DNA of 63,522 bases, filler included, from Reclinomonas americana ATCC 50394 (Eukaryota), in NCBI GenBank assembly GCA_048213135.1. It is 5 parts of 3 records of this genome, joined end to end, with 100 filler letters (N's around TTAATTAATTAA, not from the genome) between each part and the next. Parts side by side here need not be neighbours in the genome. Positions count along the whole stretch, not along the records: positions 1 to 10,718 come from PS015167.1; 4 more parts are not named here. One strand, written 5' to 3'. The translations under genes were made by a program, and so were the position numbers. Positions 1 through 10,718 of the stretch are shown piece by piece (position 1 is the stretch's first letter; each line of letters opens with the position of its first letter). Under the pieces are notes generated by a model. It was not told the DNA's origin and made no database searches. It worked only from the letters and a program-made list of their open reading frames with translations.

Positions 1-3000
1 GCCGAGCGTTGCCGCCGTGGTGGCTCCGGTCGTGAAGGTGGCACCGTTGGCGGCCACCGCTCCGCTAAAGGTGGCGGCACCGGCCGTCAGCGTGCCCGTG
101 AGCGTCGTGGTGCCGGTGACGGCCAGCGAACCGCCGAGCGTGGTTGCACCCACGCCCAGCAGCGTCAGCGTGCTACCCGAAGAGATCGTCACGTTGCCGG
201 AGAAGGTGGAGGCACCGCCGACCGACAGCGTGCCCGTCACCGTCAAGTTGGCACCCACCGACGCACTGCCGCCGAGAGTGGTGAGGCCAGATGCCACCGT
301 CAGCGTGTTGGTGCCCGCCACCGAGACGTTGCCGTTGAATGTGGAGGCTTGCGCACTGAGAGTGCCAGTGAGGGTGGTGGCCGAGGCCGAGGCCACCGTC
401 AGACCGCCATTCAGCGTCGTCAGTCCGGCGCCAACGGTCAGCGTGGTCGTCATGCCCACCAGCGACACGGGGGCGTTGAAGGTGGAGTTGCCGTTGGCAG
501 TCAGGGCGCCAGTCAGCGTTGTTGCGCCGCTCGTCACCGACAGACCGCCGCCGAGCGACGTCNNNNNNNNNNNNNNNNNNNNAAACCGGTGCCCACCGTC
601 AGCGTGTTGGCATTCGACACATTCACGTTGCCGTTGAACGTGGAGAGGCCGCCGACCGACAAGGCGCCGGAAAGAGTGGTTGTGCCGGCACTCACGGTCA
701 CGCCGCCACCAAACGTGGCGAGGCCACCGCTCACCGTCAGCGTGCACGGTGACGGGAGAGTCACGTTGCCATCCAAGGTCGAGGCGCCAGTGACCGCCAA
801 GCCAGCGCCCAGCGTCGTCAAGCCGCCCGCCACCGTAAACGTGTTCGTGCCCGTCACTGTGGTGTTGCCGGCCAACGACGCACCGCCGCTGGCCGTCAGC
901 ACTCCAGTCAGCGTCGTGGTGCCGGCCACCGACATGTTGCCCGACACCGTGGTCAGACCGGTGCCAGTGGTCAGCGTGGAGCCACTCAACAGCGTCATAT
1001 TGCCGCCAAACGACGATGTTCCCGTGACTGCCAGCGCACCGCCGAGAGACGTCAGGCCAGTGCCCACAGAGAAGGTGCTCGTGCCCGTCACCGAGGTGTT
1101 GCCGTTGAGCACGGTGGCACCAGTGACTGTCGCACCACCATTGGCGGCCAAGGCGCCAGTGAGAGTGGTGGTCGAGCCAACCGACAACGTGCCGGCCACA
1201 GAAAGGTTGTTGCCGAGCGTGGCAGCGCCCGTCACATTGATGGGACCACCAAAAGTGGCCGCACCCGTGCCCATGGTCAACGTGTTGGTGCCGGAGATGG
1301 AGAGACCGCCGTTCAGCGTCGCCAGACCAGTGACATTCAGAGCGCCGCCAATGTTGGTGGTGGAACCCATGCCAATCGTGATGGTGCCGTTGAAGGTCAG
1401 CGTGCCCGTCACCGTCAAGTTGCCGTTCACCGTCGAGTTGGTGGCGAAAATGTTCAACGTGCTCACACTGGCGTTGCCGATCGTAATGGCCGTCGAGGTC
1501 ATTTGCACGTACTTGGTGGCGCCAATGTTGAAGTTGTACTCGGGTGCCGTCAGCTGCAGCGCGTTCTTCAACGTGCCGCCACTGCCGGTGGCGCCAAGCA
1601 AAATGATAATGTCGCCGCCGTTCACCGTGCTCGAGCGAGTCAGCGTAATGGCGTCGTTCAGGCCATCAACATTCACCGTGGACACTTGCGTGCCCGACTG
1701 GCGTGCCTCCAAGAAAATCGAGTCTTGACCGTACACAAAGGACTTGACCGCGCGGGCTGTAAACGTGGCCGACTTGGTGGTACCATTGGCGGAAATCTCC
1801 ACCGCATTGGTGGCGTACAGGTTGGTATTGGTGGTGGTCGCTGTCATGTCCACGTTGCTGCTGAGGTTGAACACGGTGGTGCCGGTGGCGCTGAGGACGC
1901 TGAACGAGTTGGCGCGCACCGAATGGGCACCCGACACCTGCTGCGTCCACGACTGGCCAAACGCCGTAAAAGTCGTCGTGGCGGCCGCAGTCGTACCGCC
2001 GAGCACCACAGTGCCGGCCGTGTTGCCGAGTGTCAACGTGGTCGGCGTGTGCGAATGCGCCAGACCGGTGAAGGTGGCCGACGTGGAGCTGCGCAAATGG
2101 AAAGGGAGGGAGGAAGAATGAGGAAATGAAGAGGGATGATGTTACACACACTTTCTCTCTCTGGTATGCACAACAAACCTCGTCAAGATAAACGTGGGTG
2201 CGAGAATCTCGGTGGTGCCCGCCGAGGTGTCGAGGCGCACATACGAGCCCGTGAGGGAGATGCTCGGTGTACCGGCCATCACCAAGTCAGAGCTGATGGC
2301 CACCGTGTTGCCCTGCACCGTGGTGGTCGGACCGAGAGTGGCGCCAGACTTGAGCGTGCCGAGCGCGAGCGAGGTGGTCGAACCGGCCGTGTTGCCGATC
2401 TTGACGGCACCGGCGTCGAGAGTGTACGCAGTGCTGGCAGCGCCGCCAACCACTATGGTGGGTGCAGTGACCTTCAGCTGCGTGGCGGTGGTGAAGCCCA
2501 CATCGAGTGTGATGTTGCTGGTGTTGAGCACGGCGGAGTTGTCGCCCAGTTGCAGACGACTCGTGTCCGTCGCCACCGGCGTCACCGACATTTTGATGAC
2601 GCCACCAGTGGCGCCAGTGGAGCGCACCGTCACATTGCGACCGAGCGCCGTAATGCCGTCAATCTGCGTGCCGCCCGCAGTCTGCATGTTCAGCGACGTC
2701 ACCGCGTTCAGGTTGACTGCGTTCGACGAAGCACTGATTGTGCCGACCGTGGTCGACGCCACCAACGAGATGGAGGTGGTGGCCGGCTCGCCAGCCGTCG
2801 TCGAGCCAATCGTGTGTGTCACGGCCTTGACGGCAGCGTTGCCGTAGATCAGCGCAGTCAGCGAATCGCCGGCCACGGTGATCTTCGAGGTGGTGGCACC
2901 CGAGCCCGAGTTGTACTGGCCAATGAACAGGTTGCCAGTCGGCTGCACATTCATGGAGGCTGCGCAGGAGGCGGAAAGGGTGAGCAACAACTACCAAAAT

Positions 3001-9000: not shown

Positions 9001-10718
9001 NNNNNNNNNNNNNNNNNNNNNNNNNNNNNNNNNNNNNNNNNNNNNNNNNNNNNNNNNNNNNNNNNNNNNNNNNNNNNNNNNNNNNNNNNNNNNNNNNNNN
9101 NNNNNNNNNNNNNNNNNNNNNNNNNNNNNNNNNNNNNNNNNNNNNNNNNNNNNNNNNNNNNNNNNNNNNNNNNNNNNNNNNNNNNNNNNNNNNNNNNNNN
9201 NNNNNNNNNNNNNNNNNNNNNNNNNNNNNNNNNNNNNNNNNNNNNNNNNNNNNNNNNNNNNNNNNNNNNNNNNNNNNNNNNNNNNNNNNNNNNNNNNNNN
9301 NNNNNNNNNNNNNNNNNNNNNNNNNNNNNNNNNNNNNNNNNNNNNNNNNNNNNNNNNNNNNNNNNNNNNNNNNNNNNNNNNNNNNNNNNNNNNNNNNNNN
9401 NNNNNNNNNNNNNNNNNNNNNNNNNNNNNNNNNNNNNNNNNNNNNNNNNNNNNNNNNNNNNNNNNNNNNNNNNNNNNNNNNNNNNNNNNNNNNNNNNNNN
9501 NNNNNNNNNNNNNNNNNNNNNNNNNNNNNNNNNNNNNNNNNNNNNNNNNNNNNNNNNNNNNNNNNNNNNNNNNNNNNNNNNNNNNNNNNNNNNNNNNNNN
9601 NNNNNNNNNNNNNNNNNNNNNNNNNNNNNNNNNNNNNNNNNNNNNNNNNNNNNNNNNNNNNNNNNNNNNNNNNNNNNNNNNNNNNNNNNNNNNNNNNNNN
9701 NNNNNNNNNNNNNNNNNNNNNNNNNNNNNNNNNNNNNNNNNNNNNNNNNNNNNNNNNNNNNNNNNNNNNNNNNNNNNNNNNNNNNNNNNNNNNNNNNNNN
9801 NNNNNNNNNNNNNNNNNNNNNNNNNNNNNNNNNNNNNNNNNNNNNNNNNNNNNNNNNNNNNNNNNNNNNNNNNNNNNNNAGGAGGGGGTAAGGAGAAGGA
9901 AGGGCGAAGAAAAGAGTGTTTTTCCATGTCACTCACCAGAGCCAGAGCCAATCAACACGCCACCGGCGTACGAGTCGGCCGAGTTGATGCGCAGCGAACT
10001 GGTGCCAGAGAAGAAATCCATGGCCAGCGGGGCAGTTGGCGACGCCGTGCCGAGACGGAAATCGGTGCCGTCCACTTGGAGGCTGCTGACCACCGTCACC
10101 GGCGACGAGGACAGCAGCGGGACCGACAGACGACGATTGCCATCGACAAAGAAGGAGACGCCTTGGTTGGTACCGCCTGCAAGTAATGAACGAATGCAGT
10201 GTGTGAGCAAGACAAAAGAAGGCTCCCAAGTTATGAAAGAGAGTGTGACGCAACTCGACACGTAAAACATGCCCGTGTCGGCGTCGTCCTCAAAGGCAAA
10301 ACCAAAGTCGTAGGTGTTGGCGGCACTCGGTGGCGAACCCTTCAGTGAGCGCACCGAGCCCGTGGACAAAAAGGTGGAGGTGAAGCCGGCGGCATACGTG
10401 CCAGCACCGACCACCATGCGCACGGGGTTGGCGGCGGAGCCACCACGGCCAATGTACACGTCCGAGTTGCCAAACACCACGCCGCCCACGATCGAGTTGG
10501 CCTGATTGATGTTGAGGGTGGTGGCCGCCACATTCAGCGCCACCTGTGACAGGGAACCGAGGCTCAGCGAGCCGCCCGTCATCAACACCGAGTCGTTGAT
10601 GGTGATGGTGCCGGATTTCGGGATGCGCATGCGCTGCACCGGCGTCACGCCATCCACTTGCAGGCCAACGTACAGGAACAAGTCGAGGAGCACACCCGAA
10701 CCAGGCGTGGTCTCGCCC
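1..10718 (-). CDS. Giant multi-exon Thr/Gly/Ala/Val-rich beta-repeat protein resembling phage tail fibres or trimeric adhesins (partial at both ends, roughly 2,800+ aa visible)
   Basis: Chained minus-strand ORFs (9929-10693, 7384-8763, 6946-7383, 5376-5963, 4895-5323, 2991-4982, 2142-2990, 534-2096) show consistent codon bias and are separated by short GT-AG introns. There is a recurring module like FxxxR..GxxLxIxGQ..GGNLxLxxG..NGxVxIG, distal GALSVGGLSTFNGNVNVS-type repeats, and a GFAFEDDADTGMF motif. Confidence 0.8.
8823..8968. repeat. (GA)n microsatellite in an intron of the giant gene, running into a gap
   Basis: Directly visible perfect dinucleotide run. Confidence 0.95.

Follow-up and report, generated by a model that had tools for sequence, protein, structure and literature searches.

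A giant spliced gene of the protist Reclinomonas americana carries phage tail-fibre modules and probably encodes an extracellular beta-fibre

Phage tail fibres are trimers, an arrangement that we infer for the protein described here, and in eukaryotes a trimeric beta architecture is known from the sarcoglycans, which form a triple beta-helix tower. We analysed a 63,522-nucleotide (nt) stretch of the genome of Reclinomonas americana ATCC 50394 (assembly GCA_048213135.1; hereafter the window), in which positions 1-10718 are one scaffold piece (PS015167.1) filled by the fragment of a single fibre-like gene, which is read from 10717 to 1 on the minus strand. We consider it fairly probable that this is a nuclear protist gene whose product, a chain exceeding 2,850 residues with phage tail-fibre modules, forms a long extracellular beta-fibre, probably of three intertwined chains. 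Judged by its modules, the gene represents an undescribed eukaryotic fibre family with phage tail-fibre modules; a literature search, with incomplete coverage of subscription journals, found no paper on this family.

Among described eukaryotic systems, TLP-12 is a glycofibril seen by electron cryomicroscopy (cryo-EM), a trimer of 12-residue repeats with a rise of 14 nm per 216 residues, and its candidate genes encode giant proteins of Amoebophrya in which GSxxSx7 repeats are combined with an ICA domain at the C-terminus (10.1101/2025.09.30.679562). About 150 candidate proteins are listed in the supplementary figures of that preprint, which may be relevant to the present comparison; this is with the sections describing the fibril and its candidates (10.1101/2025.09.30.679562). 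Like TLP-12 as described there, the window protein is a giant eukaryotic protein with a 12-residue, Gly-anchored, S/T-rich repeat, and as a trimeric beta-fibre of protists TLP-12 sets a precedent. Unlike it, the window protein has no GSxxS in its distal 469 residues, its repeats are irregular and confined to the distal part, and it carries two phage modules (the DTG and GQ modules, below) that the compared sections do not describe for TLP-12. With the period present and the motif absent, the window protein is, on its repeat sequence, not a TLP-12 member; by analogy, it may work like one. As far as the consulted parts of the source on MYRF go (PMC3742443), that protein offers a second likeness, being a eukaryotic protein with a phage-tailspike-like trimeric beta architecture, where for the window protein the trimer is a presumption. 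Differences are that the visible part of the window protein has no ICA domain and that the Sarcoglycan_1 profile stays below its cut-off (10.7 bits, E = 0.32, versus 32.5).

The DTG module spans residues 116-173 (10121-10372, minus strand, interrupted by intron 1 at 10177-10254) and reads R..KG.P...GFAF..D.DTGMF; an earlier reading made from the DNA alone (the sequence-only reading) had described this DADTGMF segment, as well as the distal repeats, accurately. A first scan of viral contigs with F.F..D.DTG[IM][FY] found, among the matches listed, the 'F..D.DTG(I/M)(Y/F)' motif that the sequence-only reading had named for viral fibres, and one context much closer to the window. A second scan, in which only G[FY]AF..D.DTG[IML]F was fixed, gave 49 loci with 40 distinct contexts. 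The motif R..[KQ]G.P, which lies outside the search pattern, occurs at most 22 residues upstream in 29 of the 40 viral contexts and downstream in none, and it is found once in the 2,854 residues of the window protein, at the corresponding place (chance about 4e-5). Moreover, a profile built from all 40 contexts scores the window segment at 36.5 bits. Shuffled versions with the core left intact score 24.4 +/- 3.0, and 5 of 5,000 reach the window's value; the latter drops to 1.7 bits once the core is masked, and therefore the flanks add to the core and cannot stand alone. The alignment to the viral contexts has a gap at the position of intron 1. Among 14 carriers of the module chosen by hand, 12 have tail-fibre Pfam domains (Collar in 3, Gp10_C in 3, S74 in 4, gp53-like in 1 and Gp34 trimer in 1) and all 14 match PHROG tail families; sheath and terminase genes are present in two of the three DTG-carrying viral records tested. 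On motif and profile evidence, then, the DTG module matches a specific tail-fibre subtype, the likeness reaching beyond the searched core. With the DTG tail fibres of tailed phages and prophages (IMG/VR loci L231, L233, L250, L275 and others; tail-fibre and tail-collar PHROGs including 523, 2097 and 9942), the window protein shares a module of about 60 residues with equal spacing and conserved residues, and it is likewise long, modular, beta-rich and dominated by Gly, Thr and Ser. It differs from them in being encoded by a spliced nuclear gene, in exceeding 2,850 residues and in the absence of Collar, Gp10_C and S74 domains from its visible part.

The GQ module has the pattern phi-x-phi-(G/A)Q-x(5-8)-GG(N/D)-phi-x-phi-x-(A/G)G, which the window protein shares with long, fibre-like and unannotated proteins of large phages with baseplates (L028/L046, L048, L072, L079; P0011-P0019) and which no Pfam or PHROG model covers. 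About seven copies had been noticed, which holds: there are six, four of them full and two short, as well as a partial copy near residues 2312-2336. The first three lie in exon 3 (8392-8568, full; 8083-8226, short; 7594-7782, full), modules 4 (6603-6826) and 5 (5416-5663) run over introns 5 and 9, the short module 6 is at 5063-5194 and the partial copy at 1578-1652. The introns in modules 4 and 5 interrupt equivalent codons (GGD-V and GGD-I), both in phase 2, which fits a duplication of GQ modules inside the eukaryotic gene, after intron gain. Viral contigs fetched by the GQ pattern hold long proteins with many such modules; one carrier has a baseplate wedge gene upstream, and another adjoins a gp9-like connector. 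Furthermore, Baseplate_J is found in two of three GQ-carrying viral records tested, PHROG tail families are matched by 5 of 17 long viral GQ proteins, and a mixed GQ profile found 14 more long proteins, two of which carry a T7 tail-fibre N-terminal domain. With a profile of 18 viral GQ modules, the six window modules take the top ranks (25.0, 17.4, 15.0, 14.3, 5.9 and 2.3 bits), four of them well above the best of 600 shuffles (6.5 bits) and two within the shuffle range; this viral-only test involves some circularity, since the pattern that retrieved the viral loci was itself derived from the window. As a shared repeat pattern, the GQ module is common to the window protein and to long proteins of baseplate-bearing phages. 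Among the matches listed, it occurs in at least 2 of 121 metagenome stretches and in none of 110 bacterial or archaeal genome stretches.

Two large viral records with Baseplate_J, G004 (L022/L077; 618,736 nt) and G005 (L048/L079), contain several fibre-like genes of 1,300-3,300 residues that are rich in GQ..GG and fall outside Pfam and PHROG models.

There are also likely relatives on the eukaryotic side. A search with exon 3 returned seven proteins among 1.84 billion representatives; six of them are short, run out into intron-like text and are presumably eukaryotic exons called as prokaryotic genes. A GQ-module profile found P0008 (875 residues, several modules, signal-peptide-like N-terminus) and KIPB_008495 of Kipferlia bialata (GIQ86612.1, P0009). 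Like Kipferlia KIPB_008495 and the unnamed P0001-P0008 and P0020, the window protein has several copies of the GQ..GG module; these proteins are uncharacterised, and the unnamed ones are probably eukaryotic, to judge from intron-like read-through or a signal-like start. Since the GQ module thus also occurs in other, probably eukaryotic proteins, any acquisition would have been old or repeated rather than recent. No close relative was found among 16 candidates in IMG/VR, the P0005 locus was not recovered from metagenomes (0 of 379), and exon 1 matched none of 80 candidate proteins of 84-270 residues.

These relatives bear on the view, which we regard as quite improbable, that the gene belongs to an old, vertically inherited eukaryotic beta-fibre family whose phage likeness reflects very ancient sharing, reverse transfer or convergence of Gly/Thr-rich strands. 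In a quick, unrooted and weak tree of 90 rows, from which modules below 20 bits were omitted and in which the eukaryotic labels of unnamed proteins are presumed, a single weak branch (Shimodaira-Hasegawa-like approximate likelihood ratio 82) unites 19 of the 21 presumed-eukaryotic modules with one viral module; an upstream Arg is present in 18 of these 21 modules versus 2 of 64 phage-type ones, and most window modules have it, unlike those of the phage proteins. Eukaryotes, moreover, do build triple beta-helix fibres, as TLP-12 in its described sections illustrates. However, in these searches only phage tail fibres yielded the DTG module, with a match exceeding the core, and the named eukaryotic carriers come down to one, Kipferlia, whose five GQ modules scatter among phage modules in the tree. 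Kipferlia's modules score 103.8 bits against a phage-only profile, above those of the window, and have no eukaryote-type Arg. By their sequence, they are possibly a separate acquisition.

The gene itself carries the marks of a resident nuclear gene. It comprises 15 exons and 14 GT-AG introns with 2,667 codons free of stops, followed by a further 187 codons past a 20-N gap at 563-582, for a total of 2,854 residues. The introns measure 38-108 nt, apart from intron 2 (8775-9936; 1,162 nt), which contains a CT microsatellite and a 911-N gap and may hide exons. The gene must be spliced, since 12 of the 14 introns either change the reading frame or bring a stop codon into it; the 3' ends of all 14 are rich in pyrimidines (63-89% versus 53% in exons), and joining at the selected sites rebuilds motifs over the junctions, such as the GGD-I-GFDAG of GQ module 5. 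The junctions were deduced from DNA and some, for example that of intron 7, may be a few codons off. The coding length is about 8.56 kilobases (kb), so that the more than 10 kb of spliced coding sequence claimed at first corresponds to the gene span (10.7 kb), and the shifted donors invoked there are unneeded, as all 14 junctions resolve with plain GT-AG sites. The claim of host-type introns stands: donors (6 of 14 begin with GTT), lengths and pyrimidine tracts resemble those of the 68-nt intron of the H2B gene in the window, itself with a GTT donor, and four-fold codon use (A.05, C.43, G.40, T.12) is close to that of a host exon (.04,.41,.40,.15). Histone H4 and H2B, BUB1 and glycosyltransferase genes on the other scaffolds of the window identify the host as a eukaryote. 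Introns and codon use of host type together support a resident nuclear gene, and the idea of contaminating phage or bacterial DNA, or of misassembly, to which the construction of the window from separate scaffolds might lend itself, is hardly credible: it is already contradicted by the intron structure, with 12 of 14 introns breaking the frame unless spliced. The composition is as first described, with few Cys or charged residues: T 18.6%, G 12.9%, A 11.5%, S 11.4%, L 10.3%, V 8.0% (73% together), Cys 0.1%, and charged residues 0.2% in the distal 474 residues.

Another conceivable origin is the fibre gene of an endogenous eukaryotic virus (a giant virus or similar) that gained introns while resident and has no host function. 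Unlike phage tail-fibre genes, the window gene stands alone on its scaffold piece, with no tail or baseplate module beside it, viral neighbours might lie beyond the piece, and a model of the distal part gave two weak matches in a viral Foldseek search, the better one to a protein of Pyramimonas orientalis virus, an algal giant virus (E = 2e-4, TM 0.29). We nonetheless hold this origin to be distinctly improbable in view of 14 host-style introns, a frame intact over 2,667 codons, host-like codon use and the tailed-phage markers in four of five module-carrying viral records; among the markers of nucleocytoplasmic large DNA viruses, capsid was absent from all five such records (in a search run without a positive control) and VLTF3 and A32 from all three tested.

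The distal shaft is predicted, with moderate confidence, to be beta-helical. Autocorrelation over residues 2381-2667 peaks at periods of 12 (z = 4.2), 6 (3.7) and 33 (5.3), and a monomer model of the distal part, with a predicted local distance difference test (pLDDT) score of 62, shows a regular series of three-residue strands that align to right-handed beta-helices. The best solved structures are EtpA (Z 20.0, root-mean-square deviation (rmsd) 3.0, 272 residues aligned), Vag8 (Z 19.4) and pertactin (Z 17.4), all with an rmsd of about 3 over 260-281 residues. Taken at face value, this fit to single-chain adhesins favours a surface adhesin in the manner of autotransporters or two-partner secretion, its fibre-like modules being confined to the first half. 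Such an adhesin appears rather unlikely to us: a monomer prediction cannot separate a helix of one chain from one of three intertwined chains, Z scores of 12-16 against the same model are reached by many unrelated beta-helices, Foldseek found nothing in the PDB at E <= 0.001, no adhesin family matched the 13 exon pieces searched, and the GQ module was missing from the bacterial and archaeal stretches listed. Unlike adhesins of this class, moreover, the window gene is spliced and eukaryotic, and no translocator barrel or two-partner secretion family was found on those pieces. Of the build "like a phage tail fibre or bacterial adhesin" first proposed, the phage part is borne out by the DTG and GQ modules, beyond composition, and the adhesin part comes down to the distal monomer model.

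Several results weigh against a protist fibre of three chains with phage modules. Besides the adhesin-like fit of the distal model, the giant-virus protein as its best viral match, the two GQ modules in the shuffle range, the partial circularity of the profile test and the weak, unrooted tree, the phage link spans only about 400 of 2,854 residues, and the remainder has no relative among 17,377 fetched sequences. Pfam and NCBIfam gave no family above cut-off on the 13 exon pieces, none of the seven proteins found among the 1.84 billion representatives is annotated as phage, and a tblastn search of the exon pieces in 50,697 annotated phages produced no direct match beyond one at E = 4; this last blank carries little weight, because a viral DTG module is also unmatched there. 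The structure model of the DTG module is poor (pLDDT 54), and N-glycosylation sequons are not enriched (45 versus 50 +/- 6 in shuffles). In other searches, the DTG model had no Foldseek match at E <= 0.001, PHROGs gave only matches of unknown function, on the distal repeat (best 3e-7), and the Atlas returned clusters at 0.90-0.92, unnamed and low in recognition score, which serve as leads only. Sequence matches to WD40 and other proteins in the PDB were rejected as compositional.

With these points weighed, we still favour the trimeric protist fibre, and propose that three chains would coil together into a stiff extracellular beta-fibre in which, as in phage fibres, the DTG and GQ modules would supply the joints and the units of the shaft. 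The N-terminus, which is absent from the window, might export or anchor the fibre by means of a signal peptide or membrane anchor; the visible part contains no convincing membrane helix (best 19-residue hydropathy 1.8, over an exon junction). The likewise absent C-terminus might nucleate the trimer and bind a target, through a trimerising tip or chaperone, and the S/T-rich faces could be glycosylated. At the rise given for TLP-12 in the sections compared, 2,854 residues would make a fibre of about 185 nm or more, conceivably a rigid stalk that keeps a binding tip off the cell and serves in a coat, in attachment or in prey contact. The modules most likely reached eukaryotes long ago from tailed phages or their prophages and would then have been duplicated in a eukaryotic gene.

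Both ends of the gene are absent, the 5' end at the scaffold join 10719-10818 and the 3' end at the window edge. From the 5' side, on the minus strand, exon 1 (10255-10717; residues 1-154), truncated at that join, is followed by exon 2 (9937-10176; residues 155-234), exon 3 (7492-8774; residues 235-662), exon 4 (7018-7383; residues 663-784), exon 5 (6735-6949), exon 6 (6546-6666), exon 7 (6222-6482), exon 8 (6019-6183), exon 9 (5560-5951), exon 10 (5350-5479), exon 11 (5054-5284), exon 12 (3801-4967; residues 1290-1678), a T/S-rich beta shaft with no strict period, exon 13 (3041-3722), exon 14 (2179-2959) and exon 15 (583-2088; residues 2166-2667), which holds the partial GQ module and, from 1433 downwards, the repeat of 6, 12 and 33 residues; the repeat continues over 1-561 for the last 187 residues and runs off the window.

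The window as a whole consists of five scaffolds joined at 10719-10818, 15789-15888, 38509-38608 and 57915-58014, each join being N44, a 12-nt linker with stops in all frames and N44, and genes across joins are therefore not true neighbours. On the plus strand, 13233-15788 and 15889-17980 hold a second multi-exon gene, or two, rich in T, S, V and C, with an H-type lectin domain in the later part (Pfam 1.6e-6), which looks like another large surface protein. A near-identical repeat of about 77 nt at 10819-10895 and 18039-18115, each copy beginning directly after an N gap, has no Rfam match and is perhaps a short interspersed nuclear element or other dispersed repeat. Further along the plus strand are a gene with two nucleotide-diphospho-sugar transferase domains (18973-20852) and a very large gene with many introns and a CUB-like domain, otherwise unannotated (48900-57900). 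A divergent H4/H2B pair occupies 62376-63522, the H4 with a short N-terminal insertion.

Trimeric beta architecture of phage type is already known in a few eukaryotic proteins, such as MYRF and the TLP-12 candidates, so far as the parts of those sources considered here describe them. A giant spliced gene that keeps recognisable shaft modules of a tail fibre points to a cell reusing whole fibre parts. As a tentative and wider possibility, phage tail-fibre modules may have been domesticated by protists into a family of surface fibres that are giant, spliced and trimeric and act, as in phages, as long stalks with tips that recognise bacterial surfaces, whether to attach or to capture prey. Short and unmodelled, the DTG and GQ modules offer a handle for surveying such genes in protist genomes. 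Furthermore, they could tie orphan environmental glycofibrils seen by cryo-EM to genes.

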